Of a DNA stretch of 64,000 bases, positions 6,206-64,000 are shown piece after piece (position 1 is the first letter of the stretch; each line of letters starts with the position of its first letter). The notes under the pieces are model-generated. The model did no database searches, was not told the origin of the DNA, and saw nothing but the letters and a program-made list of their open reading frames with translations. Source of the stretch: an uncultured Bacteroidales bacterium. Lineage in GTDB: Bacteria; Bacteroidota; Bacteroidia; Bacteroidales; WCHB1-69. Where the stretch lies: contig CAMVOL010000009.1 of NCBI GenBank assembly GCA_947169105.1, forward strand, positions 11,095-75,094, read 5' to 3'. Position numbers and translations under genes: made by a program.

Positions 6206-6249
6206 TCTTTTTACTTTATAAACCTGATAAACTTTATGAACTAAATTCG

Positions 6250-31777: not shown

Positions 31778-31817
31778 AAAAAGGAACATCGGAAGGTGTT
31801 CCTTTTTTATTTTTTTA
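31778..31817 (+). terminator. Rho-independent terminator after tRNA-Val, probably bidirectional
   Basis: Stem AAAAGGAACA / TGTTCCTTTT with an 8-nt loop, followed by a T-run. It overlaps the stop codon of the convergent esterase gene. Confidence 0.7.
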
Positions 31818-45296: not shown

Positions 45297-45347
45297 CAAA
45301 CTTTATAACTTTATGAACTTGAAACTTTATAAACTTTATGAACTTTT
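45297..45347 (+). repeat. AACTTTAT-type short-period repeat tract directly upstream of the ugd promoter box
   Basis: caaactttataactttatgaacttgaaactttataaactttatgaacttttg contains the 14-mer aactttatgaactt twice. Confidence 0.65.
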
Positions 45348-45379: not shown

Positions 45380-46702
45380 ATGAAGATTGCTATTGTGGGG
45401 TCCGGTTATGTGGGCCTCGTTACGGGAACCTGTTTGGCCGATGTGGGCTGTGAAGTGTGCTGCGTGGATGTGGATGAAAAGAAGATTGCAAAGCTGAAAC
45501 GCGCCGATTCTCCCATCTATGAACCCGGTCTGGAAGAACTTTTGCGCAATAATATTGAGAAAAAACGTCTCTCTTTCACCACCTCTCTTGGGTCGGTGAT
45601 TGATAACGTTGATATTGTCTTTTCCGCTGTCGGTACGCCGCCAGACGAGGACGGCAGCGCCGACCTCCGCTATGTGCTGGAGGTGGCCCGCACCGTCGGA
45701 CGCTCCATGAACCATTACATCCTGCTTGTCACCAAAAGCACCGTGCCGGTGGGTACGGCCCAAAAGGTGAAGGCCGTCATCCGCGAGGAGCTGGCAAAGC
45801 GCGGCGCGGACATCCCCTTCGATGTGGCCTCCAATCCGGAGTTCCTGAAGGAGGGTGACGCCATCAACGACTTCAAACGCCCCGACCGTATCGTGGTGGG
45901 CGTGGAGTCGAAGCGGGCGGAAGAACTCCTGCTGTCTCTTTACCGCCCCTTCGTCATGAACGGGCACCCCATCATCGTCACCGACATCGCCTCCGCCGAA
46001 ATGATCAAGTATGCGGCCAACGCCATGCTCGCCACCCGTATCAGCTTCATGAACGACATCGCCAACCTGTGCGAAAAGGTGGGTGCGGATGTCAATATGG
46101 TGCGGCGCGGCATCGGCAGCGACACCCGTATCGGCGGCAAGTTCCTCTATGCCGGCATCGGCTACGGCGGCTCCTGCTTCCCCAAAGATGTGAAGGCGCT
46201 GATCCACACCGCCGACGAAAACGGCTACTCCCTCGACCTGCTGAAGTCGGTGGAGGCCGTCAACGACCGGCAGAAACAGGTGCTGTTTAACAAGTTTTAT
46301 GACTATTCCAAAGGCGATATTGCCGGCAAGACCGTTGCCATACTGGGCCTTTCGTTCAAGCCCAACACCGATGATATGCGCGAAGCCCCTTCATTGGTAC
46401 TGATTGACAAGCTGTTGAAAGCGGGTTGCTCCGTCCGTGCCTATGATCCTGTGGCAATGGACGAGTGCCGCCGCCGTATCGGTGACACCATCACCTATTG
46501 TAGGGATGTTTACGAAACGTTGCAGAAAGCCGACGCCCTCTTCGTGGTTACCGAATGGTCTGAGTTCAAGATTATGGACTTCAAGCGGCTGAAGGCTGAA
46601 ATGAGGCAGGCAGTCATCTTTGACGGGCGCAACATCTACAATGCCGGTGAGGTCGCGGCCCACGGCATCCCCTATTTCCCCATCGGGTACAAGGTGCGGT
46701 AA
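45380..46702 (+). CDS. ugd: UDP-glucose 6-dehydrogenase
   Basis: Start at MKIAIVGSGYVGLVTG (the ORF extends to 45338). It has the catalytic-Cys region GYGGSCFPKD, and GLSFKPNTDDMREAP. Confidence 0.9.
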   Translation: MKIAIVGSGYVGLVTGTCLADVGCEVCCVDVDEKKIAKLKRADSPIYEPGLEELLRNNIEKKRLSFTTSLGSVIDNVDIVFSAVGTPPDEDGSADLRYVLEVARTVGRSMNHYILLVTKSTVPVGTAQKVKAVIREELAKRGADIPFDVASNPEFLKEGDAINDFKRPDRIVVGVESKRAEELLLSLYRPFVMNGHPIIVTDIASAEMIKYAANAMLATRISFMNDIANLCEKVGADVNMVRRGIGSDTRIGGKFLYAGIGYGGSCFPKDVKALIHTADENGYSLDLLKSVEAVNDRQKQVLFNKFYDYSKGDIAGKTVAILGLSFKPNTDDMREAPSLVLIDKLLKAGCSVRAYDPVAMDECRRRIGDTITYCRDVYETLQKADALFVVTEWSEFKIMDFKRLKAEMRQAVIFDGRNIYNAGEVAAHGIPYFPIGYKVR

Positions 46703-46823
46703 AAGTTAAAAGTTGAGAGTTAAAAGTTAAGGGTGTATTATGTAGAGCCGTTATATTATGGCGGCTCTCGGTAGTTTCGTAAAAGGTAATAGGTTAAAGG
46801 TAATAGGTAGGAGGTTTGAAGAG
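46700..46823. repeat. C-poor AAGTT / AGGTAATAGG short-repeat tracts flanking a hairpin between convergent genes
   Basis: aaaagttaaaagttgagagttaaaagttaaggg (46700-46733), hairpin AGAGCCG/CGGCTCT (46744-46768), and aaaggtaataggt twice (46782-46808). Confidence 0.55.
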
Positions 46824-46870
46824 GGGATGTGCACCGGCTACCTTTTACTTTTTACCTCCTACTTTATACG

Positions 46871-49360: not shown

Positions 49361-49366
49361 GGCTGT

Positions 49367-49945
49367 TTATTCCTCAATTTGTTTGATGATTTCGTCGCAA
49401 GTGTCAATGACTTTCTTGTGCATCCGGAAGCCGATGACCATGCCGAGGGCGCCGCCCACGGCAAGAAACAGGATGGTGAACAGGGCTTCCTTCCACGATT
49501 GACTGTTACGTCCCATTTCGATGGCATACCAAATGAACCACACAACGAACAGCAAAATCCCGTATTTGAGCCAGTTACGATAGTTCTCTTTCAGCTTCTT
49601 GGCGGTTTTGACCACGGTCAGCAGGTCGCTGTTCAAGGTCTTCTGGTTCAAGTTCTTGTGGTATTTCCAAGTGAAAAAGTCGCAGACCAGCATAATGATG
49701 ACCGTGCCAACGGAGAACCAGAGGGAAAGTCCGAGTTGCGGGAAGTAGGTGAACGCCATCAGGATGACGAAAGCGGAGGCGGCGACGCTGATCCATGCGT
49801 TGTTGTTGATGGTGCGGGCCTTGTGCCGCATGGCATTTCGCAGCACCTCCTCATTGACGATGTTCTCCTTGTCCAATTTGTTTTTCAAGATTGCGGCTTG
49901 TTCGCGCAGTTCCTCTAACGGTTGGGTATTTTCAAAGTTCTCCAT
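49367..49945 (-). CDS. Hypothetical 4-TM membrane protein between the ECF sigma and the TonB-dependent receptor
   Basis: 192 aa with an N-terminal coiled segment followed by four hydrophobic segments. It is 2 nt from the sigma stop and 6 nt from the receptor start. Confidence 0.6.
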   Translation of the reverse strand: MENFENTQPLEELREQAAILKNKLDKENIVNEEVLRNAMRHKARTINNNAWISVAASAFVILMAFTYFPQLGLSLWFSVGTVIIMLVCDFFTWKYHKNLNQKTLNSDLLTVVKTAKKLKENYRNWLKYGILLFVVWFIWYAIEMGRNSQSWKEALFTILFLAVGGALGMVIGFRMHKKVIDTCDEIIKQIEE

Positions 49946-49947
49946 GG

Positions 49948-50439
49948 CTAATCTTCTTTGGTTTCTGACATTTGAATTAATTTCTGCTTGATTCTCAATA
50001 ATTTGACGGAAACATTTTTGACGGAAATTCCGATGATGGCGGCGATTTCCTCATAGCTGAGGTTGTCAAGCCAGAGCAGCACGATGGCGCGTTCCATCAG
50101 GTCGAGGCGGTTGATACGGCTGTAAAGCTGCTGGATTTGGCGCGTTTCGTGGTCGTCGTTGGTGAAAAGGTCGGAGGCCATATCCAACGACACTTTCTCG
50201 CCGCGCCGTTTCTTTTTCCGGTCTTCAGAAATGCAGGTGTTGAGCGCCACCCGCCAGATCCAAGTCTCCACTTTGGCCTCGCCCCGGAAACCGTCGAAAC
50301 CCTTCCAGAGGTTGACCAGCGTGTCCTGAAACAAGTCGTTCACCTCATCGGTGTCTTTCGAAAACATATAGCACACGGTGTAGATGGTGCTCTTATGCTT
50401 CCTCACGACTTTTTCAAACTCAAATTCTTTGTTGTCCAT
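49948..50439 (-). CDS. ECF-type RNA polymerase sigma-70 factor
   Basis: Start at MDNKEFEFEKV (the ORF extends to 50520). Region 2 is VCYMFSKDTDEVNDLFQDTLVNLWKGF and region 4 is VLLWLDNLSYEEIAAIIGISVKNVSVKLLRIKQKL. Confidence 0.85.
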   Translation of the reverse strand: MDNKEFEFEKVVRKHKSTIYTVCYMFSKDTDEVNDLFQDTLVNLWKGFDGFRGEAKVETWIWRVALNTCISEDRKKKRRGEKVSLDMASDLFTNDDHETRQIQQLYSRINRLDLMERAIVLLWLDNLSYEEIAAIIGISVKNVSVKLLRIKQKLIQMSETKED

Positions 50440-50499
50440 CTTTTTAAGAATCAATACGTCCGTTAGACGCAACGAAAGGAAATTTGCTACACAAATTTT

Positions 50500-50533
50500 A
50501 TAAAAAAACTCCCGCCGCAAACGAAGACGGGAG
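50500..50533 (-). terminator. Rho-independent terminator about 170 nt downstream of arcC
   Basis: The minus strand reads CTCCCGTC-ttcgtttgc-GGCGGGAG followed by TTTTTTT. Confidence 0.65.
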
Positions 50534-50571
50534 AATGGTTATATTCTATTGAGGTGCGGTATATCACGTTT

Positions 50572-50613
50572 CTACTACCCCGGCCTACGGCCACCCCTTC
50601 TACATAGAAGGGG
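50572..50613 (-). repeat. REP-like ~40-nt element, copy B (inverted relative to copy A)
   Basis: ctactaccccggcctacggccaccccttctacatagaagggg. Its reverse complement matches 18511-18548 over the 23-nt core. This copy keeps an intact 9-bp hairpin CCCCTTCTA/TAGAAGGGG. Confidence 0.7.
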
Positions 50614-50645
50614 AATTCACTCACTCCTACATTCAAACCATTAGT

Positions 50646-50714
50646 CTAATTCCTAACACCTCTATATCCTATTCACTATACCCTGAAACCTGAAACCTGA
50701 ACCCTAACCCCTGA
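50646..50714. repeat. G-poor short repeats: 12-mer CTAATTCCTAAC plus CCTGAAA heptamer run overlapping the arcC stop
   Basis: ctaattcctaac (also at 31584-31595), then cctgaaa cctgaaa cctgaac cctaacc cctga (50682-50714). Confidence 0.6.
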
Positions 50715-51645
50715 CGATGCGGGTGCCGCAGGCGGGGTTGCCCAATTGGCCGGCTTCGGTGATGATGCACTCGGCGCCGCCGTTTTCCACGAAATAGAGG
50801 GCGGCACGGATTTTCGGAGCCATCGAACCTTCGGTGAAATGGCCTTCCTCAAGGTATTGTTTCGCCTCTGCCACGGTGATGGTGTCGAGGGCTTTCTCGT
50901 TGGGTTTCTTGAAGTTGAGATAGACCTTCGGCACATCGGTGAGGATGTAGAACTCGTCGGCGCCGATCTCCACGGCGGTGAGGGCGGAAGCAAGGTCCTT
51001 GTCGATAACGGCCTCAACGCCAATGGTGTAGCCGTCCTTCACGATGACGGGGATGCCACCGCCGCCGACGGTCACCACAATATTGCCGGCTTCGGCCAGC
51101 TGCTTCACGATGTCGATGTTCACCACGCGAAGCGGCTTCGGGGAGGCCACGACCTTGCGCCAGCCGTTGCCTTTCGGGTCCTCACGGAAGATGGCGCCCG
51201 TTTCGGCGGCATACTCCTCCGCCTCCTCTTCCGAGTAGTACGGACCCACCGGCTTGGTCGGGTTCTTGAACAGCGGATCCTCGCCGTTCACCTCCACCTG
51301 CGTCACCAAAGTGACTACATTGCGCTTCATGTTATTCTTGACGAAGATATTGCGGAATGCCTGCTCGATGAGGTATCCGATGGAGCCTTGCGTCTCCGAA
51401 ACGCAGAAGTCCATCGGCATAATTGGAAGATCGAAGCTCTTGTTTCCCGCTTCATGCTGAAGCATCACGTTGCCCACCTGCGGGCCGTTTCCGTGGCCGA
51501 TTACAATATTATAGTCCTGTTTCAATAAACCCAAAAGGGATTCGCAAGTTTTCGTAACGTTCTGAATCTGTTCCTGATAGGTACCTTTCTGGCCGCTTCG
51601 CAACAAGGCATTTCCTCCAAAGGCGACCACTGCTAATTTTGCCAT
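50704..51645 (-). CDS. arcC: Carbamate kinase
   Basis: 313 aa with VVAFGGNAL, GHGNGPQVG and VGGGGIPV motifs. Confidence 0.92.
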   Translation of the reverse strand: MAKLAVVAFGGNALLRSGQKGTYQEQIQNVTKTCESLLGLLKQDYNIVIGHGNGPQVGNVMLQHEAGNKSFDLPIMPMDFCVSETQGSIGYLIEQAFRNIFVKNNMKRNVVTLVTQVEVNGEDPLFKNPTKPVGPYYSEEEAEEYAAETGAIFREDPKGNGWRKVVASPKPLRVVNIDIVKQLAEAGNIVVTVGGGGIPVIVKDGYTIGVEAVIDKDLASALTAVEIGADEFYILTDVPKVYLNFKKPNEKALDTITVAEAKQYLEEGHFTEGSMAPKIRAALYFVENGGAECIITEAGQLGNPACGTRIVRG

Positions 51646-51690
51646 AAATGTTATTTAGTTGTTTTATAGATGTTTCAAAAATTGGGGCGG

Positions 51691-51698
51691 CAAAGATA
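51691..51698 (-). promoter_or_regulatory. -7 promoter box (TATCTTTG) for arcC
   Basis: The minus strand reads ttacaaactaaattgTATCTTTGCCGCC about 46 nt upstream of ATG 51645. Confidence 0.5.
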
Positions 51699-51791
51699 CA
51701 ATTTAGTTTGTAATGTTCATCAAGTTTATTTGTAATGTAGGGACGCATCGCATGCGTCCGATTATGGCACCGCGTGCGTCCGATAATAACC

Positions 51792-52178
51792 CTAATCCTC
51801 TTCCCCGTACAAATTTTTGATGTACTCAATCTGCCGCCGGTCGCGTTTGGTGGGACGGCCTTCGCCGCGGTCGCGGTGCTCGAACCGCATATTGAGCATC
51901 TTCACCCGCTCGTACTCTTCGGGCGGCGTGAGGTCGGTCATGTACTGCGGCACTAACGGCGCTCCCACGCGACTTTTGGGACTATCGACCACCTGCACCG
52001 TTTTCTCCAACTGCCCGATGTGGACGACGTAAATCTCGTCTTTCTTCACTGCCTTCGACGGTTTCACGTTGGTGCCGTTCATCTTCACCTTGCCCGCGTT
52101 GCATGCGTCGGTGGCCATCGAGCGGGTCTTGAACAGCCGCACGCTCCACAACCATTTGTCAATCCGGATGTTCTCCAT
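51792..52178 (-). CDS. hslR: RNA-binding S4 domain protein (Hsp15/HslR-like)
   Basis: 128 aa beginning IRIDKWLWSVRLFKTRSMATDACNAGKVKMNG, with a basic C-terminal tail. Confidence 0.8.
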   Translation of the reverse strand: MENIRIDKWLWSVRLFKTRSMATDACNAGKVKMNGTNVKPSKAVKKDEIYVVHIGQLEKTVQVVDSPKSRVGAPLVPQYMTDLTPPEEYERVKMLNMRFEHRDRGEGRPTKRDRRQIEYIKNLYGEED

Positions 52179-52187
52179 AACGCTGGC

Positions 52188-53066
52188 TTATTTGCGGTGC
52201 AACTCTCTGGCGTGCAGAGTGTTCAGCAGCAGACAGGTCATCGTCATCGGGCCCACGCCGCCAGGTACGGGCGTGATGGCCTCACACTTCTTGGCCACCT
52301 CGTCGAACTTCACGTCGCCGCAGATGCGGTAGCCCTTCTCACTCTTTTCGTCGGGGATGCGGTGGATGCCGATGTCGATGACGGTGGCGCCCTCCTTCAC
52401 ATAGTCGGCGGTGATCATCTCCGGCTGGCCGATGGCCACGAGCAGGATGTCGGCAGTGGCGCAGACCTCCTTGAGGTTCTGTGTACGGCTGTGGCAGAGG
52501 GTGACGGTGGCGTCGCCCGTGTCGGCTTTTTCGGCGAGCAGCAGGGCGAGCGGTTTGCCCACGATGTTGCTGCGACCGAGCACCACGCAGTGCTTTCCTT
52601 TCGGGGAAATGCCGCTGCGTCGGAGCAGTTCCACGGTGCCGTAGGGGGTGGCGGGCAGGAAATCGGCCTCGCCCAACAGCAGTTTGCCGTTGTTCACGGG
52701 GTGGAAGCAATCCACGTCTTTTTTTGGATCCACGTGGGCCACTACTTTCTCCATACTGATGTGTTTGGGCAGCGGCATCTGGATGATGTAGCCGTCGATT
52801 TCATCGTCATTGTTCAGGAAATCAATGGCTTGCAAAAAATCCTCCTCTTTGATTTCAGTGGGGTAATGGTAGATGGAGGAGACGAAGCCGACCTCTTTGC
52901 AGGCGCGGCAGATACTGTCCACGTAGGTTTTGGCTGCGCCGTCGTCGCCCACGATGACCGCCGCGAGGTGCGGAACGGGCTGTCCCTCTTTCATCATCGC
53001 TTTCACCTTGTCGGCGATTTCGTCCTTCACTTCATTCGCAATCTTCTTACCGTCAATTACTTTCAT
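52188..53066 (-). CDS. folD: Bifunctional methylenetetrahydrofolate dehydrogenase/cyclohydrolase
   Basis: Start at MKVIDGKKIA (the ORF extends to 53096). Motifs are LAAVIVGDDGAAKTYV, VVLGRSNIVGKPLA and TPVPGGVGPMT. Confidence 0.92.
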   Translation of the reverse strand: MKVIDGKKIANEVKDEIADKVKAMMKEGQPVPHLAAVIVGDDGAAKTYVDSICRACKEVGFVSSIYHYPTEIKEEDFLQAIDFLNNDDEIDGYIIQMPLPKHISMEKVVAHVDPKKDVDCFHPVNNGKLLLGEADFLPATPYGTVELLRRSGISPKGKHCVVLGRSNIVGKPLALLLAEKADTGDATVTLCHSRTQNLKEVCATADILLVAIGQPEMITADYVKEGATVIDIGIHRIPDEKSEKGYRICGDVKFDEVAKKCEAITPVPGGVGPMTMTCLLLNTLHARELHRK

Positions 53067-53093
53067 AAAAATATCTTTAAAATTATTGGGGTG

Positions 53094-53101
53094 CAAAGGT
53101 A
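53094..53101 (-). promoter_or_regulatory. -7 promoter box (TACCTTTG) for folD
   Basis: The minus strand reads ttgttgTACCTTTGCACCCC 28 nt upstream of ATG 53066. It is nearly identical to the ugd promoter core. Confidence 0.55.
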
Positions 53102-53107
53102 CAACAA

Positions 53108-53206
53108 TAGTTTGTAAAGTTTGTCAAGTTCATCAAGTTTATCAAGTTTGTAAAGTTTATCAAGTTTGTAAAGTTTATCAAGTTCATCAAGTTTTAAAGT
53201 TTGGGT
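53108..53206. repeat. 9-bp tandem repeat array, about 11 units, consensus AAGTTTRTM
   Basis: tagtttgta aagtttgtc aagttcatc aagtttatc aagtttgta aagtttatc aagtttgta aagtttatc aagttcatc aagttttaa agttt. It lies between the divergent folD and giant-gene promoters. Confidence 0.85.
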
Positions 53207-53316
53207 TTTTGTGGGTTGGGGGGGTGTTCATAACCCTTTTTTTCCGTTCACAATTTGCTGTTTAAAAAAATAAGGTTTTTTTAGAAATACCTATATGCCA
53301 ATAAAAAAATAAATGC

Positions 53317-53324
53317 TATTTTTG
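53317..53324 (+). promoter_or_regulatory. -7 promoter box (TATTTTTG) for the giant surface-protein gene
   Basis: gcTATTTTTGTCAG sits in a very AT-rich region about 125 nt upstream of ATG 53448. Confidence 0.45.
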
Positions 53325-53447
53325 TCAGATTTTATATCATAGTGTAAAAGTTGTTGATAACCCACCACTATGGCTTTGTAATTTATTGGAAATAAAATAG
53401 ATAGAAAAATAAATAAGAAAATTAATAACAATCAAAAACTATTTTTT

Positions 53448-56400
53448 ATGAAAAAGTTTTACACTTTTGAGCCTAAAAATTTCCGAATCTTGACCAAGAT
53501 GAAGAGTTTTCTTGCCGTCGCACTCCTTTTGCTGATGGCTGTAGGTAATGTAAAAGCACAAACGGAACAAACAAAGACGGTTAGTTTTGACAGTTATGGT
53601 TTTAGTAATGCCCAAACCTTCCCGTCAGGAGATGTTGTAAGTGGTTTTATAAGTTTTTCGACAGAGAAAAATAGTGCAACTACTGATCCTGCTTACTATG
53701 GGAATTCGAATAAAGATATTCGTTTATATGCGGGTAGCGGAAATGGCTGTGCTTTAAAGTTGTCCCTTTCTGGTGGAGTAATTGTAACAGCTGTGGAAAT
53801 TCAAAGTAAAAGAACCCAAACATCTACCTATAATTTTTACGTGGATGGAGTTGATAAAGGACAAACCACTGCATCATTGAGCGCGGGTCAATGGATTAAA
53901 TTGACAGGTATAAATGCTACTGAAACTGTTGTTTTCAAAAACACCAATGCAGCGGCAAGTGGTAGTGATAGTCAGATAAGAATCACGGGTATTAAGGTTA
54001 CATATATTGTTACTTCCTGCACAGTTACCCGCACGGAGCCGGTGAATCTGTCCGTGTGTACGTCACCGTACCAACAAGTGATATTTGGTAAAAATAATAA
54101 GGTATATTCTTCCACCCGTGCGGAAGGGGAGTATCTTGACACCATCGCTGGTGTGGGCGGCGATTGCGATACCGCCGTTACGGTGAACTTCACATTGATT
54201 CCTGCTTCCTATGAAAAGTATGATACCATCAAAGCTGGTGAACATTACGCCTTTGGTGATATGGATCTTACAACAACTACTAATGAAAATTATACATTCA
54301 CTGCAAGCTGTGGTTGCGACAGTATTGTGTTCCTTTATCTGACCGTTCTCCAGCCGGTGATGAAGGATGCCGTCAACGATTTTGTTTGTGCCGGTAAGAC
54401 CTATATTTATAGAGGCAAGAATTACACGGAGGCAAACACCTACTACGACACGGTGAAGATGGGTGCCGGCATTTGCGACACCATCTACACCTTGGTTCTC
54501 TCCGTCAGAGACAACGCCACGTATGCGTTCGACCAGACGATCAAGCCGGGTGAAACATGGTTCTTCACCGACAAGTATCCCAGCATCGCCACGGCTGGTA
54601 CTTATAAAGACACACTCACCGCCGCCAACACCTGTGACAGCATCGTGACCGTCACCGTGACCGTCCTCCTGCCGGTGGTGCTGCCTGCTGAGGATGCCAC
54701 CACCTGCGAAGGAAAAGCATATTCCTTCAGAGACAAGGATTACACCGTGGCAGATACCTACTACGACACAGTGAAGATGGGCGCCGGCATTTGCGACACC
54801 ATCTACACCCTGATCCTCACGGTGAACCCGAAAGCCACCTATGAATATGACTATTCGATGGACGAAGGTGACACCTACGATTTCTTCGGGACCCCGATCA
54901 CGGAATCCGGCGTCTATCCCTACACGCTGACGGATGCCGCCGCCAATGGCTGCGACAGTGTCGTCACCGTCACCGTCACCGTGATTCCGCTGCCCGATAC
55001 CATCTACGAGGAAACGGTTGCCATTTGCGAAGGTGAAACCTATACCTTCCATACGTTTGAAGGAGATAGTATATGTACAGAAACAAATATATATATATTC
55101 ACGAAAGCAGGTTTTGCCCAGGGTGGTCGCGACAGTATCCGTATCCTCAACCTCACCGTTATTGAAGAAGTGAGAGTGGACACCAGCATCACCATTTGCG
55201 AAGGCCAGTTGCCACACGAATTCTTCGGACGCACTTACGATGAAAGCATCGGAACAGGTACCCACAATTACACCATCCACATGGAAAGTGAGGGTGGCTG
55301 CGACAGCGCCTTAGTGCATCTGACCCTCATCGTCGGTGAGGAGTACGAAGGCGAGACGGTTGAGGCAACCATCTGCGAGAGCGAGCTTCCGTATCACTTC
55401 GGCCCCACCGGTCAGGATACTCTCATCCAGACGGCAGGTGCCCATGTCATCACGTTCCATACGGTGCTTGGTTGCGACAGCACCGTCACCCTGAAGCTCA
55501 ACGTCAATCCGGAATACGACCTTGCGGAAACGCTGACCATCTGCGAGAGCGAACTGGCCGGCACTGGCTATGTTTGGCGCGACACCGTCTTTATGGAAGG
55601 TACCACTTCCGGCATCTTCGTTTTCAACAGAGAGACTGTCGCCCACTGCGACAGCATCGTGACCCTGACCCTTACGGTGAACGGCCTCAACAACGAGACG
55701 GTCTATGACACCATCTGCGACAGCGAGCTGGCCGGCACCGGCTATGCTTGGCGCGACACCACCTTCATGGAAGGTACGGAGAGCGGCACTTTCGTCTTCA
55801 ACCGCAAGAATGCCAATAACTGTGACAGCATCGTCACCTACCACCTCACTGTCAATCCGGCCCGTACGGAAACGGCCTATGACACCATCTGTGCGAGCGA
55901 GCTGGCCGGAACCGGCTATGCTTGGCGCGACACCACTTTCATGGAAGGTACTACAACCGGCACTTTCGTCTTCAACAGAGAGACTTCCCTCGGCTGCGAC
56001 AGCATCGTGACCCTGTACCTCACGGTCAACCCGACCTATACGCTGCCTTTGGTGGACACCACCATCTGCGCCAGCGCACTGCCGTTCAGTTACTATGACA
56101 CCACTTTTGATGCGAACACGCTTCCTGGTGTGTACAACTATACCTTCCGCGGTCACACCCTTGCCGGCTGCGACAGCATCGGAACTGTGAAGCTCACGGT
56201 CAATCCGTCCTATACGGAGACAGATACTCTCAAAATCTGTCAGCTTGAGCTGCCCTATGTCTATACCACCGGCCTCGGCCAGACGATCACTTTGGAGGAA
56301 GGCATTCCCACGGGTACGTATGACACCATGCTTCTGTTCAACACCACCCTCAACTGCGACAGCAACATCGTCCTGCACCTCACGGTCACTCCGAGCACAG

Positions 56401-59400
56401 AGTGCCAGTTCATAATCCAAGTGGATACCGGCGCACATGGCACCGTTGATGGCGCAACCACTGTTTACTACCAGGATACCGCCCGTTTCACCATCAAAGC
56501 CGACAACTGCTACTATATCGAAAGCATTAAGATGGATGGCGTTGATGCCGCTTTCGACCCCTATAGCACATACAAGGAAGTTTCTTTCGACAGCGTTTAT
56601 ACGGACCACACGTTGGCCGTCACTTTCGCCATGTTCCAATACACGGTAACGGCTACGGCCCACGGCGAAGGCACCATCACGGCTAGCGACACCTACGACT
56701 GCGACTCTGTTGTGGTTTACAACTATGCCGCCGCTGCTGGTTATCATATCGACTCTGTGAAGGTTGACGAAGAGCTTACGGTTTATACCGACGAGACCCA
56801 GACAGAGGGCAGCAAGAACTTCGGTCCTATTGCCGCCAACCACACAATTGATGTCTATTACAGCATCAACCACTACACGGTGACGATCACGGCTGGTGAG
56901 CACGGCACGGTTACCCCGAGCGGTGTTCAGAATGTTGTTTATGGCACACAGCCGATCCTCAACTTCACTTCCGATGGTTGCTACGAAGTGGCTTCCATCA
57001 CAGTGAATGGTACCCAGATTGACACCACTTGCACCACCTTCACGCTTGACTCCATCAAGGAGAACACGACCGTTGACATCGCCTTCGACACCATTCATTA
57101 TCAGATTATGGTGACGAGAGCGGGTAACGGTAACGGTACTATCAACGGCAACTATGGTGATATTGCCGGTGAAATTGCCTGCGCTAATCCGGTCAATTAT
57201 GATGTGATTGCGGATGAAGGTTCCTATATTGACACTATTATTTGGTACGGTGTAACCATTCCGTTCACCGGCCACGTGACAAGCTGGTCCATCGGTCTGC
57301 CTTCTGTTACGCAGAATATGGAACTCTATGTGGTCTTCTCCCTTGACAAGGAGCATGTGTTGGCATACGCTGATGGCGGTCTTGGAACTGTCACTCCGGC
57401 CGACACAATGGTTGGCTTCGGCACCAGCTGTGACATCCAAGTGGTGGCCGACACGCTCAACGGTTATCATATCGCCACCATCTACACGGGCGAAAATCCC
57501 GAGAACGTGGTTTGGGAAGGCCAGAACAACGAAAAGACCCATATCTTCACTCTTGGCAGTGTGACTACCGACACCACCGTCCACGCCACCTTCGAGCTGA
57601 ACCGCTACACCGTAGCCGCTACGACGGAAGGTACGGAGGGCACCCTCACTCCCGATAGCATTACCGTGCTTCATGGTCATGACTTGGGCTTCACCGCTAT
57701 TGCCGGTGACTGCCAGTTCATCGACAGCATCTTTGTGGATGGTATTTCCCAGATCATTACCAATGTTGACACAATGAAATTCACGGTCAGCAACGTTATC
57801 ACGCCTGACCGCACGGTGCGCGTGGTCTTCTCCACTGTCCAGTATCAGATGACCGCCACCTTCAATAATGTGGAAGGCACGGTCAGCGACAGCATCGTGG
57901 ACTGCGGCAGCAGCTACACCTACACCATTACCCCGAACACGGGCTACCATGTGGACACTATTTACTATGATGCTGAAAACTTCGTCATAGGAGAAACCAG
58001 CTATACCTTTACGAACATCCGTGAAGATCATAACATCAAGGTCGTCTTCGCTATCAACCAGTACGAAGTGACCGCCAGCACGGACGGCAACGGCACGGTG
58101 ACGCCCACTTCCGAAACAGTGGCTCACGGCGATGATCAGACCTTTACCGTGACACCGAACGACTGCTACCATATCAGCAGCATCACCGTGAACGATGTGG
58201 ACTACGACCTGAGCCATGTGAGTGGTGGTACATTTACGGTTTCCAACATCACGGAGGCCACCACAGTGAAGATCAACTTCGCTCTCGACACCTTCCAGCT
58301 GGTCCAGACCATCACGGGTGAGGGTACGGTGAACGAAATGGCCGACACTACGGTGAATGTGCTTTGCGGCAGCGATTACATCTTCAACATCGCCGCTGCC
58401 GAAGGCAACCACATCGTAAGCTATACGGTTAATGGCGGAACTCCCGTTACGGTTGACAACAGCGAAAGCTATGTTGCTACGCTGACCGATACGATTAAGA
58501 ACATCCAAGCGGATTGCACGCTTGCCGCTGAATTCGCCGTGAACACCTACACCATTTACACGGAGAGACTTAGCGGTATGGGTACTTTCACTCCCGATGT
58601 CGTAACCGTCAACTACGATGCTGACACGATCATCATCGTTACGGCCGACAACGCCAACGGTTATCATATCGCTTCCGTCACTGCCACTGGTATCAATGAA
58701 GTTTACAGCAATGACGACCACAAGATAGTGGATACGGTGCATCTTACTAACATCCGCGCCAACGACACCCTGAAGGCAGAGTTCGCTCTCGACCTCCACC
58801 TGATTTCCGTAATTATCGAGGGTGAAGGTGCGGTTGCTCCGATGGACACCAACATCACTTTCGGTGACACCGTCACGTTCAACATCACTCCTTACGATTG
58901 CCAGTACATCAGCAGCATCGTCGTGGACGGTCGCGACACGACTATCACCGATCCTGCAGGTATGCAGCTGACCTTCAACCATGTGGTGGATACTCACAGA
59001 CTGGAAGTCACCTTTGCTCCTACCACCTATCTGGTCAAGTGGAAAGAGTACTATCCGGGTATGCCCACCATCAGAGAAGACTCCAACGTGGCCTGCGGTA
59101 CTGACTTCACTTACGAGGTTCGTGCCGAAGAAGGTTTCCACATCCACGAGGTCTATCTGGATTATGTCGTTGATACGACCTTCGAAACCGAACAGATTGA
59201 TGCGTATGACTTGGTAATCCCCAATGTCCGTGAGACCCACCTTATTGAGGTACAGTTCGAACAGGACTACTACAGCTTGCATCTTGACACGGTTGGCGCA
59301 GGTACGATTGTGTGCGACAGCGCTGATCTCTCGAAGATTTATTACAACACCCCGCTGCAGTTCACGGTGACTCCGGAAGAATGTTACGAGTTCACCAGTC

Positions 59401-62400
59401 TCACCATCAATGGTGTGAACTATACGGATCAAGTGGTGGGCGGTGTCCTCAACTGGAACGCCATCGACAGCGGTGCCGTGGTCGCCACCTTCAGCATCAT
59501 CCGTTACGAAATGGCCTCCTCGGTCAATGACGGCAATATGGGTACGGTGACACCCACCGATTCTGTGGATTGCGGTACGCCTTACACTTACTACATCGCC
59601 GCCAACGAAGGCTACCATATCGACACTATCACTTGCGGCTCGTTTGTCAAGGTGCTGGGTGAGAACGACAATGTTCTTGACACGTTAGTGATTGCGAACG
59701 CTGTTTCTGACACGGCCGTCCGTGTGGTCTTCTCCATCAACACTTACAATGTTACGATTTGCACACCTGCTCCTGAAAACGGCACATTGACCGTCAATCC
59801 TGCCATAGTGGAACACGGTGAAAACTGCGAGGTGACTATCGTTGCCGATTCTGTACACGGCTACCACATTGACACCATCTTCTGCGGTGACAACATCGTG
59901 CCGCTGGGCCAGAACGAGAACACGTTCTATGTATATAACATCAATGGTATCACTTCCGATACGACCGTCTGTGCGTCGTTCAGCCTGAACAACTACACGA
60001 TTACCGCTTCCATCGCTGCTGAAGATGTTGAACACCTCTCCATCATGCCTGGTGACACCAATGTGAAGTTTGGTGACACGGTGATTTACACGGTGAAGAG
60101 CATCAATGACTGCTACTACATCAACGACGAGATTTTGGTGGACGGTGTAGCTGTTGAGTTCACCACTGGCGACAGCACGCGTGCTACCTACGCTTTTGAA
60201 GCCATTAATTCGAACCACACGATTGTGGCCAACGCCGCGATTTACCGTTACGCAGTCACCACCACGGTCAATGACAACACTCTTGGTGAAATCACTCCGG
60301 GTGACACCACGCTTGACTGTGGTAGCGACTATGCTTACGTTGTGACCCCGATCACGGGTTATCATATTGATTCTGTGAAGGTGAACGGCGTGATGCAGAC
60401 CATTACCGACAGCTCCACCTTCTCCAGCACGATTGAGGACATCCACACGGATACGACGATTGCTGCTTACTTCAGCATCAACCATTACATGATTGTCGCC
60501 TCCACGGGTGATAACAATGGTACGATTGATCCGGTTGACACCATCGTTTACGAATACGGTGCAACCCCGACCTACATCATCAAACCGAATGACTGCTACT
60601 ACATCAGTGAGGTTCTGGTGGACGGCACGGCTGTGGAGTTTACCACTGGCGACAGCACGTACGCTACCTATACTTTCGATGCGATCGATGCGAGCCATAC
60701 CATTGTGGCCAACTTCGCCATCTACAAATATGATATGACGGCTGACTTCGAAGCGGCAATGGGTACTGTCACCACCGCTACCGACATTAACTGCGGTGCT
60801 GATTACCAATATATGATTACCGCCAACGAAGGCTTCCATATTGTCAGCTACACGATTGGTGGTGTTACTGTCACCAACACGATGGAAGAACCCAACGACT
60901 ACATCGTTGATTCTGTCCTGATCTCCCCGGTCAGCCAGGATACCAATCTTGTGGTTGAGTTCGATACGAACACCTACACTGTCTCTGTCTGTGCTGATGC
61001 AGTGAACGGCAGTCTTGTGGTGAACGATCCGACCGAGGTGAACTACAATGAAGGTACGACAGTCACTGTCGTTGCTGACACCGCCAATGGTTATCATATC
61101 GCCAGCATTACCGACAGCCGCGGCATCACCGTTCCTTACGGCCACAATACGGACAAGATCGCCACTTACAATGTGGACAATGTTGTTGCCGATGATACGG
61201 TGTGCGCCACCTTCGAACTGAACACCTTCACCATCCATACTGAAAACGGTGAAAACGGCACAATCACTCCGTCGAACGACACCATCGTCACCTACGGCGA
61301 TGTGGTTGACTTCGTCATCGAGCCGAACAGCTGCTACTACATCTCCAACATTTTGGTGGATGGCGAAAGCGTCTGGACCGGTTACACAGATTCTGTCAGC
61401 GCCTACACGCTCCAAATCAATGTTTCCGAATTCGATCCGGCCGTTGAGACCCACACCATCGCCACCGAATACACCATCTTCCAATACACGATGACATCCA
61501 CTGTCAATGATGCGACGATGGGTACGGTGACGCCCACCACCACGGTGGAATGCGGTTCGACCCACAACTACGAGATTGAAGCCACCACAGGTTATCATAT
61601 TGACCATGTGATTTTGGACAATGTCCAGACCGACTACGAAGGTCAGCAGAATACCGCCACCATCACGGTGACTGACATTCGTGCAGACCATCAGTTGGAT
61701 GTCTTCTTCGCGAAGAACCGCTACACAGTGACGGCCACCGCCGGTGAGCACGGCACGATTACTCCGTCGGGTGTGACCACTGTTGAACACGGCGCATCCC
61801 TCACCTACACGATTGCACCTGATCCTTGCTACTACATCGACAGCGTTCTGGTGAACGGCGAGGTTGTTGAATTCACCACTGGCGACAGCACAGGTGGTAC
61901 CTACACCTTCGCTTCCGTTGAGGACACCATGACCATCCACGCCGACTTCCATATCTATGAATATAGAATGATGGCTGAATATGATGAGGAAATGGGTTCT
62001 GTGGAGACAGGTATTGCCACCTGCGGCAGCAACTACACTTACACGATTCACGCCAACGAAGGCTACCACATCACGAGCATGCGTGTCGGCACGACGACGC
62101 ACAACAACAATGTGGGTCTGAATACGGATACTGTTGCTACCTTCAATGTCTATAGTGTCTATCAGGATACTACTTGCTACGTTGAGTTCGCTCGGAACAC
62201 CTACACTGTCAACTTCAATGTGACGGGTGAGGGTGAAGTTGAGCCGGGTAACACCACGGTCGATTACGACTCCACATTGGCTTACACGGTTACTGCCGGT
62301 ACAGGTTATCACATTGTGAGCATTACCGACAACGGCACAGTGGTTTACACCAATGACAACCGCGATACGGTTGCTCACTCTGGCAGCATTGCCAATATCC

Positions 62401-64000
62401 GTGAAAATCACACGATTGATGTAGTCTTCGCTATCAACGAGTACACCATCACTGCCACGGCTGGTAATGAAGGCGAAATCATCCCGGGTACGCAAACCGT
62501 CACCTACGGTGCTACGCCGAACGTTACCATCCGCACCCTCGAGGATTGCTACTATATCAGCCGCATCCTTGTGGACGGTGAGGAAGACACGGTCTTCACG
62601 AACAATGAAACCCGCTATGTTTACACCTTCGCTCCTGTTGATACAGATCACGTGATTGCAGCTGAATTCGGTATCCGCACCTACACGGTTATCGTTAATG
62701 CTGACACCAACGGTACGGTTGATCCGAGCGGTGACACACTCACGTACGACTGTGGTGCCACGGTCACTTACACCTTCACGCCGAATGATGGATACGAAGT
62801 GGTGAGTGTCACGGTCAACGGCAGCAACATTGGTGCCCAGACCAGCTACACTATCACCAATATCCAGAATGACTACACGATTGATGTGGTGTTCGGTCAG
62901 ACCTTCTACACCCTGACATCTGTTGCCTACGGTCATGGTACGATTGATCCGCTGGGTGAAACTACCGTTCTTGCTGACTCCTCTATGACCTACACGCTGA
63001 CTCCGGACGACTGCTACACAGTTTCTGAAGTTCTGGTCAACGGTGTCTCTTATCTGAACAACGAAGCCTTCGACGGTGAAACCCTCACCTTTGATTCTGT
63101 AACGTCGGATATGACCATCCAGGCTTACTTCCAGATTAAGACCTACACGGTTGAAACCGAAGCCAACGAAGGCGGTACAATCACCGAGACGGCTGTTTAC
63201 GATTGCGGTACGGATGTGGTCATCAACATCACTCCGGATGCCTGCCACACCCTTGATTCTGTTATGGTTGACACCACTGTGATGACGGATGTCACCGAAG
63301 TTTCCTTCAACGCACTGGATACCAACCACACGGTCATGGCCTACTTCTCCATGAAGACCTACGCCATCACCGCTTCTGTCAATGACACCTTGGGCGGCAC
63401 CATCACCCCGACCGACACGTTCGATTGCGGTGAGAGACCGACCTACGAGATTACTGCCAACGACGGCTATCATATCGACAGCGTTATGGTTGACGGTGTG
63501 TATCAGGGTGCTATTGGAAGCTACACCTTCAGTTCACTTGATGCAGATCATGAAATTATGGCTGTCTTCGCCAAAGACTTGCACCATCTGACGGCTTATG
63601 CCAACGCAGGTGTGCGGATTGAGCCCGTTGCCGACACTACGGTTGAACATGGCACAGACTTCACCTTCTACTTCACGATTGTGGATACCTGCTACGAGAT
63701 TGAAAATGTCACGGTTGACGGTGAAAGCATCGGTGCGGTTGATTCCGTTGCCTTCGACAGCGTGATTACTGATCATGTTGTGAATGTCACCACCACGTTG
63801 AAGACCTACACCATCACGGCTACGGCTATGGAAGGCGGTACTATCACGCCTGCTGGTGCCCTTACCGTTGAGTGCGGTGGCACACAGAGCTTCAGCATCA
63901 CGCCCGCCGTCGGTTACACGCTCGACAGCGTGATGGTGGACAGCGAGAATGTGGGCGAGGTCTATAACTACGTGTTCAGCGATGTCCATGAGGACCACAC
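53448..64000 (+). CDS. Giant repetitive cell-surface protein, 5' partial (more than 3,500 codons, continues beyond the window): signal peptide, unassigned N-terminal domain, 14 Cys-framed modules, ~30 InlB-B-repeat-like modules
   Basis: The frame with codon starts at positions divisible by 3 is open by hand translation from ATG 53448 to base 64000. A second ATG at 53499 gives MKSFLAVALLLLMAVGNVKAQ. It has consistent repeat grammar throughout and a promoter-like AT-rich upstream region. It is not in the ORF track, presumably because it has no stop in the window. Confidence 0.85.
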   Translation, partial: MKKFYTFEPKNFRILTKMKSFLAVALLLLMAVGNVKAQTEQTKTVSFDSYGFSNAQTFPSGDVVSGFISFSTEKNSATTDPAYYGNSNKDIRLYAGSGNGCALKLSLSGGVIVTAVEIQSKRTQTSTYNFYVDGVDKGQTTASLSAGQWIKLTGINATETVVFKNTNAAASGSDSQIRITGIKVTYIVTSCTVTRTEPVNLSVCTSPYQQVIFGKNNKVYSSTRAEGEYLDTIAGVGGDCDTAVTVNFTLIPASYEKYDTIKAGEHYAFGDMDLTTTTNENYTFTASCGCDSIVFLYLTVLQPVMKDAVNDFVCAGKTYIYRGKNYTEANTYYDTVKMGAGICDTIYTLVLSVRDNATYAFDQTIKPGETWFFTDKYPSIATAGTYKDTLTAANTCDSIVTVTVTVLLPVVLPAEDATTCEGKAYSFRDKDYTVADTYYDTVKMGAGICDTIYTLILTVNPKATYEYDYSMDEGDTYDFFGTPITESGVYPYTLTDAAANGCDSVVTVTVTVIPLPDTIYEETVAICEGETYTFHTFEGDSICTETNIYIFTKAGFAQGGRDSIRILNLTVIEEVRVDTSITICEGQLPHEFFGRTYDESIGTGTHNYTIHMESEGGCDSALVHLTLIVGEEYEGETVEATICESELPYHFGPTGQDTLIQTAGAHVITFHTVLGCDSTVTLKLNVNPEYDLAETLTICESELAGTGYVWRDTVFMEGTTSGIFVFNRETVAHCDSIVTLTLTVNGLNNETVYDTICDSELAGTGYAWRDTTFMEGTESGTFVFNRKNANNCDSIVTYHLTVNPARTETAYDTICASELAGTGYAWRDTTFMEGTTTGTFVFNRETSLGCDSIVTLYLTVNPTYTLPLVDTTICASALPFSYYDTTFDANTLPGVYNYTFRGHTLAGCDSIGTVKLTVNPSYTETDTLKICQLELPYVYTTGLGQTITLEEGIPTGTYDTMLLFNTTLNCDSNIVLHLTVTPSTECQFIIQVDTGAHGTVDGATTVYYQDTARFTIKADNCYYIESIKMDGVDAAFDPYSTYKEVSFDSVYTDHTLAVTFAMFQYTVTATAHGEGTITASDTYDCDSVVVYNYAAAAGYHIDSVKVDEELTVYTDETQTEGSKNFGPIAANHTIDVYYSINHYTVTITAGEHGTVTPSGVQNVVYGTQPILNFTSDGCYEVASITVNGTQIDTTCTTFTLDSIKENTTVDIAFDTIHYQIMVTRAGNGNGTINGNYGDIAGEIACANPVNYDVIADEGSYIDTIIWYGVTIPFTGHVTSWSIGLPSVTQNMELYVVFSLDKEHVLAYADGGLGTVTPADTMVGFGTSCDIQVVADTLNGYHIATIYTGENPENVVWEGQNNEKTHIFTLGSVTTDTTVHATFELNRYTVAATTEGTEGTLTPDSITVLHGHDLGFTAIAGDCQFIDSIFVDGISQIITNVDTMKFTVSNVITPDRTVRVVFSTVQYQMTATFNNVEGTVSDSIVDCGSSYTYTITPNTGYHVDTIYYDAENFVIGETSYTFTNIREDHNIKVVFAINQYEVTASTDGNGTVTPTSETVAHGDDQTFTVTPNDCYHISSITVNDVDYDLSHVSGGTFTVSNITEATTVKINFALDTFQLVQTITGEGTVNEMADTTVNVLCGSDYIFNIAAAEGNHIVSYTVNGGTPVTVDNSESYVATLTDTIKNIQADCTLAAEFAVNTYTIYTERLSGMGTFTPDVVTVNYDADTIIIVTADNANGYHIASVTATGINEVYSNDDHKIVDTVHLTNIRANDTLKAEFALDLHLISVIIEGEGAVAPMDTNITFGDTVTFNITPYDCQYISSIVVDGRDTTITDPAGMQLTFNHVVDTHRLEVTFAPTTYLVKWKEYYPGMPTIREDSNVACGTDFTYEVRAEEGFHIHEVYLDYVVDTTFETEQIDAYDLVIPNVRETHLIEVQFEQDYYSLHLDTVGAGTIVCDSADLSKIYYNTPLQFTVTPEECYEFTSLTINGVNYTDQVVGGVLNWNAIDSGAVVATFSIIRYEMASSVNDGNMGTVTPTDSVDCGTPYTYYIAANEGYHIDTITCGSFVKVLGENDNVLDTLVIANAVSDTAVRVVFSINTYNVTICTPAPENGTLTVNPAIVEHGENCEVTIVADSVHGYHIDTIFCGDNIVPLGQNENTFYVYNINGITSDTTVCASFSLNNYTITASIAAEDVEHLSIMPGDTNVKFGDTVIYTVKSINDCYYINDEILVDGVAVEFTTGDSTRATYAFEAINSNHTIVANAAIYRYAVTTTVNDNTLGEITPGDTTLDCGSDYAYVVTPITGYHIDSVKVNGVMQTITDSSTFSSTIEDIHTDTTIAAYFSINHYMIVASTGDNNGTIDPVDTIVYEYGATPTYIIKPNDCYYISEVLVDGTAVEFTTGDSTYATYTFDAIDASHTIVANFAIYKYDMTADFEAAMGTVTTATDINCGADYQYMITANEGFHIVSYTIGGVTVTNTMEEPNDYIVDSVLISPVSQDTNLVVEFDTNTYTVSVCADAVNGSLVVNDPTEVNYNEGTTVTVVADTANGYHIASITDSRGITVPYGHNTDKIATYNVDNVVADDTVCATFELNTFTIHTENGENGTITPSNDTIVTYGDVVDFVIEPNSCYYISNILVDGESVWTGYTDSVSAYTLQINVSEFDPAVETHTIATEYTIFQYTMTSTVNDATMGTVTPTTTVECGSTHNYEIEATTGYHIDHVILDNVQTDYEGQQNTATITVTDIRADHQLDVFFAKNRYTVTATAGEHGTITPSGVTTVEHGASLTYTIAPDPCYYIDSVLVNGEVVEFTTGDSTGGTYTFASVEDTMTIHADFHIYEYRMMAEYDEEMGSVETGIATCGSNYTYTIHANEGYHITSMRVGTTTHNNNVGLNTDTVATFNVYSVYQDTTCYVEFARNTYTVNFNVTGEGEVEPGNTTVDYDSTLAYTVTAGTGYHIVSITDNGTVVYTNDNRDTVAHSGSIANIRENHTIDVVFAINEYTITATAGNEGEIIPGTQTVTYGATPNVTIRTLEDCYYISRILVDGEEDTVFTNNETRYVYTFAPVDTDHVIAAEFGIRTYTVIVNADTNGTVDPSGDTLTYDCGATVTYTFTPNDGYEVVSVTVNGSNIGAQTSYTITNIQNDYTIDVVFGQTFYTLTSVAYGHGTIDPLGETTVLADSSMTYTLTPDDCYTVSEVLVNGVSYLNNEAFDGETLTFDSVTSDMTIQAYFQIKTYTVETEANEGGTITETAVYDCGTDVVINITPDACHTLDSVMVDTTVMTDVTEVSFNALDTNHTVMAYFSMKTYAITASVNDTLGGTITPTDTFDCGERPTYEITANDGYHIDSVMVDGVYQGAIGSYTFSSLDADHEIMAVFAKDLHHLTAYANAGVRIEPVADTTVEHGTDFTFYFTIVDTCYEIENVTVDGESIGAVDSVAFDSVITDHVVNVTTTLKTYTITATAMEGGTITPAGALTVECGGTQSFSITPAVGYTLDSVMVDSENVGEVYNYVFSDVHEDH
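54006..56400 (+). repeat. Array of 14 Cys-framed ~50-60-aa protein modules (coding repeats)
   Basis: Each module runs from about C-[EAD]-[GS]-[EQ] to [GN]CDS[IV]VT-x-x-LTV-x-P. Examples are GCDSIVFLYLTVLQP, TCDSIVTVTVTVLLP, GCDSTVTLKLNVNP and NCDSNIVLHLTVTP. Confidence 0.8.
56400..64000 (+). repeat. Array of about 30 ~75-90-aa beta-rich modules (Listeria-Bacteroides / divergent InlB B-repeat-like), coding repeats
   Basis: The recurrent pattern is xYxVTAxxGxxGTVTPxxxxxVxxGxxxxxxIxPxxCYxIxSIxVDG...YxFxxIxxxHxIxxxF, alternating with ...MGTVTP...CGSxYxYxIxAxxGYHI... variants. The family name is inferred from pattern memory, not from a search. Confidence 0.7.

Follow-up and report, generated by a model that had tools for sequence, protein, structure and literature searches.

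Which strand of the last 10.5 kb of this DNA carries a gene, and what does that gene encode? The window, by which is meant the whole analyzed stretch of 64,000 nucleotides from an uncultured Bacteroidales bacterium (contig CAMVOL010000009.1), is listed at its right-hand end with four large open reading frames (ORFs), all of them on the minus strand. The initial annotation proposed that these ORFs are antisense shadows of a single giant surface-protein gene on the plus strand, which is interrupted by the end of the window. The ORF listing returns the four at exactly the coordinates that had been named, and all four stops fall on the sense codons to which they had been assigned. Lengths are in amino acids (aa).

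54063-55280, minus strand: antisense shadow ORF of 405 aa, its stop being sense TCA 54063; no Pfam match.
55311-59618, minus strand: antisense shadow ORF of 1,435 aa, its stop being sense TTA 55311; no Pfam match.
59685-63473, minus strand: antisense shadow ORF of 1,262 aa, its stop being sense TTA 59685; no Pfam match.
63534-63998, minus strand: antisense shadow ORF of 154 aa, its stop being sense TCA 63534.

The analysis answers that positions 53499-64000 of the plus strand very probably encode, in a rumen-type Bacteroidales bacterium, the N-terminal ~93% of one secreted surface protein that is built from repeats (~3,770 aa, ~408 kDa, pI ~4.1), presumably a glycan adhesin with a distal head that is exported by the T9SS (type IX secretion system), and that the minus-strand ORFs are not genes.

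Machine translation of 53448-64000 on the plus strand gives 3,517 codons without any stop, so that the frame is uninterrupted from ATG 53448 to the end of the window, as had been claimed. Over the same interval, stops number 128 and 214 in the two remaining plus frames and 221, 279, and 8 in the minus frames, the 8-stop frame being the codon-aligned antisense. Because the other frames hold 128-279 stops, the openness of 3,517 codons is not due to chance. The ORF listing contains no plus-strand ORF for 53448-64000 since it leaves out ORFs that run off the end of the source, which agrees with the earlier explanation that the frame was omitted for lack of a stop inside the window.

The sense product matches the Pfam family Flg_new_2 (PF18998) with 157.5 bits (cutoff 23.6, E 8e-47) in 9 stretches. 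Among the families suggested for an hmmscan of the plus-strand product, Flg_new_2 was recovered, whereas Flg_new (PF09479) and the Big and cadherin families gave no match. The product is high in Thr, Val, and Asp, and its frame exhibits a strong codon-position asymmetry, with A occupying 8.8% of third positions. In a comparison with a near-identical allele on the metagenome scaffold L019 (3,255 aligned codons, 132 differences), the differences are distributed 24/22/86 over the three codon positions, and dN/dS is 0.164. The sense frame is under purifying selection with respect to this allele. The Flg_new_2 match, the sense dN/dS, and full-length orthologues in nine assemblies bear out the proposal that the plus frame is a real gene.

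The minus frame has a different origin. All eight stops of the antisense frame coincide with sense TTA or TCA codons (at 53625, 53724, 53754, 53874, 54063, 55311, 59685, and 63534); CTA is not used once in the sense frame from 53448 to 64000, and downstream of 53877 the only sense TTA or TCA codons are the four that end the minus ORFs. TTA, CTA, and TCA together account for 0.23% of sense codons as compared to 1.25% pooled in 39 other window ORFs, and Leu for 4.2% of the sense product as compared to 8.9% in the other window ORFs. The shadows remain open owing to the low Leu content of the sense gene and its avoidance of codons ending in A, such that TTA, CTA, and TCA are almost unused, and they reach their scale because, in addition, the gene is long. 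Codon-aligned minus-frame shadow ORFs of biased genes are a recognized annotation artifact. Those described here are like the known ones in that their stops derive solely from sense TTA, CTA, and TCA, with long ORFs arising where these codons are avoided, and they differ only in their unusual scale (1,435 and 1,262 aa).

It is scarcely credible that at least one of the long minus ORFs, for example 55311-59618 with its 1,435 aa, is a real gene that overlaps or replaces the plus-strand gene. The minus ORFs are indeed very long and begin with ATG. Nevertheless, the substitutions between the window and L019, when read antisense, give a dN/dS of 1.52 and pile up at antisense codon position 1 (85/22/24), and this 98%-identical allele carries one extra antisense stop, at sense codon 1944, within the 1,435-aa ORF. 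The orthologous loci L001-L007 hold 12-39 stops in the antisense frame with longest open runs of 365-2,098 codons and variable spacing; thus, the openness of the antisense frame is not conserved. The antisense products are abundant in V, G, R, D, I, and A, and the three long ones have no match in Pfam, in keeping with the earlier remark that these V-, G-, R-, and D-rich products lack motifs. Comparable shadows also lie over other genes of the window: a 451-aa ORF (47960-49315, plus strand) covers the TonB-dependent receptor-like gene 46871-49360 on the minus strand, and a 365-aa ORF (52020-53117, plus strand) covers folD (52188-53066, minus strand), so shadows of this kind are general in this genome. 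None of the four long minus-strand ORFs is a gene, and their origin in the codon usage of the sense gene is as had been proposed.

The plus-strand gene and its control region are built from the following elements, with residues numbered from ATG 53448.

53317-53324, plus strand: Bacteroidetes-type -7 promoter box TATTTTTG, identified in the sequence and assigned a putative promoter role by its consensus.
53325-53498, plus strand: conserved AU-rich 5′ leader, including the first ATG at 53448, from the 5′ alignment.
aa 1-17, plus strand: product of the stretch between ATG 53448 and ATG 53499.
53499-53558, plus strand: probable start codon and Sec signal peptide MKSFLAVALLLLMAVGNVKA (aa 18-37), with cleavage predicted before Gln38.
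53559-54044, plus strand: head domain H1 (aa 38-199), predicted to be all-beta and jelly-roll-like in an AlphaFold2 (AF2) model.
53568-54028, plus strand: swappable head cassette (461 nt), not alignable with L019 1820-2310.
54045-56411, plus strand: 14 tandem Cys modules of ~58 aa each (aa 200-988), delineated by a self-profile (E 1e-17 to 1e-29 each).
56409-64000, plus strand: 32 tandem InlB-B-repeat-like (Flg_new_2) modules of 70-84 aa with 2-aa linkers (aa 988-3517), delineated by PF18998 and a self-profile.

This segmentation by self-profiles confirms the order that had been described for the sense translation, i.e., a signal peptide, one unique domain, and two classes of repeated modules.

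The Cys modules follow the consensus TIC..L.G..Y.F.D....G.Y..T....GCDSIVTL.LTV.P, and no model in Pfam or NCBIfam matches them. An AF2 model of a pair of modules (pLDDT 91.7) consists of small beta-rich units. Its comparison with PDB folds gave no significant match (best E = 0.012, TM ≤0.43), the weak top matches being tandem Rib domains and the neck of the Aureispira "grappling hook" GhpA. When a Cys-module profile was searched against 1.84 billion representative proteins, 21,790 protein clusters matched at E ≤1e-3 and 13,253 did so at E ≤1e-10; a single protein may hold as many as 85 copies. Five copy-rich proteins were scanned: three of them terminate in a CHU_C or Por_Secre_tail domain, and in none is the module covered by a Pfam family. 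The shorter matches are mostly PF18962 and PF13585 proteins. As a stalk module of T9SS cargo, the Cys module appears to be very common and unannotated, and it is a candidate for the definition of a new domain family. The window protein has 14 copies and L019 has 13, the difference being exactly one 58-aa module. The most similar modules in the window are 67-74% identical to one another, and a difference of exactly one module is therefore attributed to unequal recombination within these most similar modules.

The InlB-B-repeat-like modules (B-repeats) fall into two roughly alternating subtypes, "CYYI...VDG" and "GYHI", and module 32 is interrupted by the end of the window. Their pairwise identity averages 27% and reaches at most 58%, and nucleotide self-matches do not exceed 78% over up to 335 nt; judged by sequence, these modules are old and diverged. 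Searches of PDB sequences with the head, the Cys modules as well as their profile, and the B-repeats found nothing.

How the protein ends can be read from its relatives. The Cys-module profile search returned P0355, a protein of 3,735 aa with an N-terminus nearly identical to that of the window protein and with 94-100% identity to it in each of the 250-aa blocks that cover residue 251 to the end. Searches with shorter queries listed no protein longer than ~1.75 times the query, so the allele protein came to light only through this profile. On the 13.2-kb scaffold L019, as in the window, an S4-domain gene and folD accompany the giant gene; the scaffold aligns with the window in three blocks.

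Window 51751-53567 against L019 1-1819: 95.7% nucleotide identity.
Window 54029-55868 against L019 2311-4147: 95.1% nucleotide identity.
Window 55710-64000 against L019 3815-12093: 98.4% nucleotide identity.

The last two blocks overlap because L019 lacks one of the 58-aa Cys modules. Past the last codon of the window, the allele adds 271 aa, which comprise the rest of repeat 32, repeat 33, an fn3-like domain, and, at the end, a T9SS type A sorting domain that scores 36.3 bits against TIGR04183 (cutoff 23). Downstream of this tail come TAATAA, a hairpin that is rich in G+C and has a T-run (a terminator), and the first part of an SDR gene.

Rumen Bacteroidales assemblies (L001-L007, which are GTDB genomes, and L009 and L010) encode nine collinear orthologues with lengths of 3,568-3,709 aa. 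Their identity to the window protein is 37% overall and 53-59% in the last 300 aa. All nine are complete, and their tails are all alike by reading; those of L001, L002, L005, and L007 were scored against TIGR04183 and gave 32-39 bits. A hairpin terminator lies past the stop in all three orthologues that were checked, and the downstream SDR gene is common to L001, L002, and L005. Two fragments, P0121 and P0180, overlap the last repeat of the window with 62-64% identity and end in an fn3 and a TIGR04183 domain, the latter at 31-32 bits. Thus, a T9SS type A tail on the window gene is strongly supported by the allele and the orthologues, from which it is inferred for the window strain. The full length is predicted to be ~3,788 aa from ATG 53448 or ~3,771 aa from ATG 53499, and the mature protein with the allele tail added would have a mass of ~408 kDa and a pI of ~4.1.

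A second cargo protein is encoded within the window itself. The esterase at 31807-33063 carries a Por_Secre_tail (T9SS type A) domain at 55.9 bits, as the initial annotation had stated, and for this reason the organism probably uses T9SS. Proteins with such a C-terminal domain (CTD) track the presence of T9SS (PMC10202324). In L001 (~1-460) and L005 (~1-850), a same-strand gene lies directly upstream of the giant gene and ends, by eye, like a T9SS sorting domain (...GCYFVRVTTDRTSEVLKLMVQ and ...GIYFVQVDTRQTVETIKLIVK, respectively); the giant gene of these two loci may lie in a T9SS cargo cluster.

The beginning of the gene is unusually well conserved. Promoters of the Bacteroidetes have a -7 consensus of TAnnTTTG, which is the basis for calling TATTTTTG a promoter box. 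The box, which the initial annotation had placed upstream of the ATG and which was found at 53317-53324, is invariant in the window, the nine orthologous loci, L018, and L019. In the 5′ alignment of the window with the nine orthologues, conservation at the nucleotide level extends from about -215 through the signal peptide, and the 35-nt block 53457-53491 is identical in eight of the nine distant relatives. The window and L019 are 100% identical in both the promoter box and the leader. No part of the locus is more conserved than the stretch separating the two ATGs (53448-53498), with 84-96% nucleotide identity as compared to the 37% identity of the orthologous proteins.

Both ATG codons named in the initial annotation exist, and the second does yield the signal peptide, but a start at the first is less likely, as the substitution pattern between the two is not protein-like. 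The 17 codons between ATG 53448 and ATG 53499 have no synonymous-variant columns, and their variable sites are distributed 3/3/3 by codon position. In the next 21 codons, those of the signal peptide, there are 12 synonymous-variant columns and variable sites are distributed 8/0/11. Since the protein-coding substitution signature begins at ATG 53499, translation probably starts there rather than at 53448. Public gene calls use the first ATG, such that P0010, P0063, P0355, and P0391 all begin MKKFYTFEPKNFRI; if translated as an N-terminal extension, the inter-ATG stretch would also be constrained at the nucleotide level. The leader has no match in Rfam, and RNA folding and alifold found neither a stable fold (z = -0.06) nor covariation (term +0.1). 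A 20-nt inverted repeat (53341-53360 and 53446-53465) was considered as a conserved helix or an inversion site and rejected, being less complementary in the relatives and having no compensatory changes in an alignment inspected by eye.

Inspection of the signal peptide MKSFLAVALLLLMAVGNVKA shows that its n-region is basic, its hydrophobic core spans 12 residues, and its cleavage site, VKA/Q, is of the small-x-small type. Gln at the +1 position fits the Q-rule for signal peptidase I (SPI) substrates of the Bacteroidetes (PMC5837995, PMC10653852).

The head domain H1 has no match in Pfam at E ≤1. Its AF2 model, computed from a two-sequence alignment, has a pLDDT of 68.8 and a pTM of 0.69, and the PDB neighbors found by Foldseek are the CBD of a pectate lyase and CBM36, CBM35, and CBM32-type modules (E 7e-5 to 1e-3, TM 0.45-0.57). 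The model is suggestive of a carbohydrate-binding-like jelly-roll. The allele on L019 harbors a different head, H2, at 1820-2310 (491 nt), which is unalignable to H1 and is surrounded by flanks of 95-98% identity. The swap has one junction at the point where the signal peptide is cleaved and the other where the first Cys module starts (RTEPVNLSVC). H2-type heads also occur in L001-L007, L009, L010, and P0063, and the H2 head of L019 is 41-60% identical to those of the distant orthologues and P0063. H2 looks ancestral, as its divergence is about that of the rest of the protein. An H1-type head is found elsewhere only in P0010 and P0391, at 36% identity. Both types stand behind the same leader in several independent assemblies (H1 in L018 and P0391; H2 in L001-L007, L009, L010, and P0063).

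A broader proposal, for which the chances are judged to be even, has three parts. It holds that the locus beside folD encodes a polymorphic giant adhesin whose distal head, either the CBM-like H1 or the unrelated H2, is exchanged as a cassette between alleles of 95-98% identity by recombination at two conserved handles, namely the leader with the signal peptide before the head and the first stalk module after it. The 51-nt leader stretch would be a possible undescribed element of post-transcriptional or translational control for giant T9SS cargo, and the 58-aa Cys module would represent a very large T9SS stalk family that has neither a model nor a structure.

In the proposed mechanism, the protein would be exported by the Sec pathway via its classical signal peptide and carried over the outer membrane by T9SS. 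Type A cargo passes through the Sov/SprA translocon, is shuttled by PorV, and has its CTD cleaved by PorU, and the new C-terminus is commonly linked to anionic lipopolysaccharide (LPS) (PMC10202324, PMC12618676). By analogy with such cargo, PorU would remove the C-terminal sorting domain of the giant protein and the new C-terminus would be joined to anionic LPS. The 33 B-repeat domains followed by the 14 Cys modules (~47 domains) would then extend outward from the cell as a long stalk that presents the N-terminal head at its distal tip. The protein would act as a fibrillar adhesin with a specificity set by the head, and the ligand of H1 would probably be a glycan on plant fiber, mucus, or another cell. 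Adhesion to glycans is proposed as the most likely role because H1 resembles a carbohydrate-binding jelly-roll; surface anchoring, glycan binding, and the adhesin role are all inferred.

The protein shares features with several characterized systems. Like the T9SS type A cargo RemA of Flavobacterium johnsoniae and the CTD proteins of P. gingivalis, it has a Sec signal peptide with Gln at +1, its allele and orthologues end in a TIGR04183/PF18962 CTD after an Ig/fn3-like domain, and other type A cargo is encoded in the same genome. In contrast to these, it is far larger (~3,770 aa), is composed of Flg_new_2 repeats and an unannotated Cys module, has no lectin or protease domain recognizable by sequence, and has a tail that is predicted from the allele and orthologues. 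SprB, the giant gliding adhesin of F. johnsoniae, is likewise a surface repeat protein of several hundred kDa that is exported by T9SS (PMC10202324). However, SprB has a type B CTD (PF13585) and SprB repeats (PF13573) and requires SprF, whereas the window protein matches neither PF13573 nor PF13585, the allele tail is of type A, and nothing in the window gene points to gliding.

Proteins with InlB B-repeats or Flg_new_2 (PF18998) domains, including multidomain pectin-esterase proteins of Prevotella and Bacteroidales, share the same repeat family. Flg_new_2 proteins have been reported from gut Prevotella and Bacteroidales, where the domain stands beside carbohydrate-active domains (PMC10076258). 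The window protein differs in that it has 32-33 copies in one unbroken array and no enzyme domain. The Gram-positive fibrillar adhesins with Rib domains and the T9SS-dependent GhpA of Aureispira resemble it in having a stalk of many small, diverged beta domains and a functional tip. They differ in that the fold matches are not significant (E ≥0.012, TM ≤0.43), there is no relationship in sequence, and the anchoring chemistry is another one.

The surroundings of the giant gene vary between strains. One neighboring gene serves to anchor the comparison.

52188-53066, minus strand: folD, the divergently transcribed neighbor, whose translation begins MKVIDGKKIANEV...; THF_DHG_CYH in same-species contigs.

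folD adjoins the giant gene in the window, L018, and L019, and the folD of L018 is 95% identical to that of the window in amino acid sequence and 90% in nucleotide sequence. In L018, the folD-adjacent gene at 714-3734 (P0010) has the same leader, an H1-type head, and nine Cys modules, which are followed by an Ala-rich helical region and another domain. L012 is 94-96% identical to window 45560-53107 and then diverges fully at 53107, where a 9-bp array starts; its positions 1-376 hold a different gene start (MENDLILRVEEK...) beside folD. The giant gene therefore lies at a strain-variable junction.

The array (53100-53203), between folD and the giant gene, comprises ~10 tandem copies of the 9-bp sequence AAGTTTRTM and differs by 3 nt between the window and L019. 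Single or double copies occur in three other intergenic regions (~6214-6242 and 45325-45345, minus strand; 51704-51724, plus strand), and a further copy lies past the terminator of the allele in L019. The array and the stretch after the allele terminator were considered as flanking direct repeats, i.e., as the signature of an insertion, and this was rejected in view of the dispersal of the motif in other intergenic regions; AAGTTTRTM looks like a dispersed intergenic repeat of the genome. At the other end of the window, the 1,367-aa ORF 636-4739 (minus strand) has PPDK_N and PEP-utilizer domains in its C-terminal third only, scores far below the pyruvate phosphate dikinase cutoffs, and has no reported domain in its N-terminal ~870 aa.

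Four observations weigh against the interpretation of the gene as a T9SS-exported glycan adhesin. The 3′ end of the window gene itself was not recovered, so its sorting domain is predicted from the orthologues and from the allele, which lies on a metagenome scaffold: the exact 45-nt sequence at the window end has no match in the metagenome contigs, protein-pattern scans of genome and metagenome contigs returned orthologues at 53-59% identity that are not of the same species, an exact look-up of folD was fruitless, and the same-species contigs found via the carbamate-kinase gene are short and reach the giant gene at most. In the window, no core T9SS gene (sov, porK/L/M/N, porV, or porU) was identified, no search having been aimed at them. 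The matches of H1 to carbohydrate-binding modules are at the level of the fold, with 12-19% identity and moderate model confidence (pLDDT 68.8). Finally, P0010, which is syntenic and comes from a related organism, lacks a sorting domain and has its stop after 1,006 aa, with 13 nt left to the contig end; truncated or divergent versions of the locus thus exist, and P0010 may represent a different architecture, a truncation, or a mis-assembly.

These points bear on two other explanations. The gene could encode a genuine secreted protein that is not an adhesin and is instead released or structural (a surface-layer component, spacer, fiber, or scaffold), with a head ligand that may not be a glycan. 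Sequence searches reveal no catalytic or known binding domain in the protein, some type A cargo is released rather than anchored (PMC10202324), the fold match of H1 is moderate, and the Cys-module model weakly resembles stalk domains of giant proteins as varied as GhpA and those with Rib domains. However, a long stalk of diverged tandem beta domains that carries a distal head is the layout of a fibrillar adhesin, the head is the part that differs between near-identical alleles, as expected of a tip that recognizes a ligand, and its best structural neighbors are carbohydrate-binding modules; a role other than adhesion is considered unlikely without being far-fetched. It is more doubtful still that the window copy is decaying or silent, a pseudogene in the making, or that the head swap is an assembly chimera formed at conserved flanks. 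The status of L019 as a metagenome scaffold, swap junctions that lie in sequence common to both gene types, an exact H1-backbone junction of the window for which no independent assembly was found, same-species contigs that break near the giant gene, the complete divergence of L012 at 53107, and the early end of P0010 are all consistent with such an explanation. Decay is opposed by 3,517 stop-free codons and a dN/dS of 0.16, and the complete identity of the window and L019 in promoter box and leader, the occurrence of each head type behind the same leader in independent assemblies, and the shared folD flank in the window, L018, and L019 speak in the same direction. A secreted adhesin with a distal head remains the preferred interpretation.

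For annotation, the locus is a trap: four apparent large minus-strand genes in 10.5 kb are in fact one plus-strand gene cut by the end of a contig. If the listed ORFs are taken at face value, ~3,250 aa of non-existent protein are annotated and the largest gene of the region is missed. The gene belongs to the giant T9SS-exported repeat proteins of the Bacteroidota, an already familiar kind, and its recognition is correct and useful for annotation and unsurprising to a specialist. The swappable distal head, the nucleotide-conserved leader of an 11-kb mRNA, and a Cys module that has no Pfam model add modest interest and do not overturn current understanding. Giant T9SS surface proteins are common and yet almost entirely uncharacterized in rumen Bacteroidales, and in the rumen, attachment to plant fiber decides which organism degrades what.

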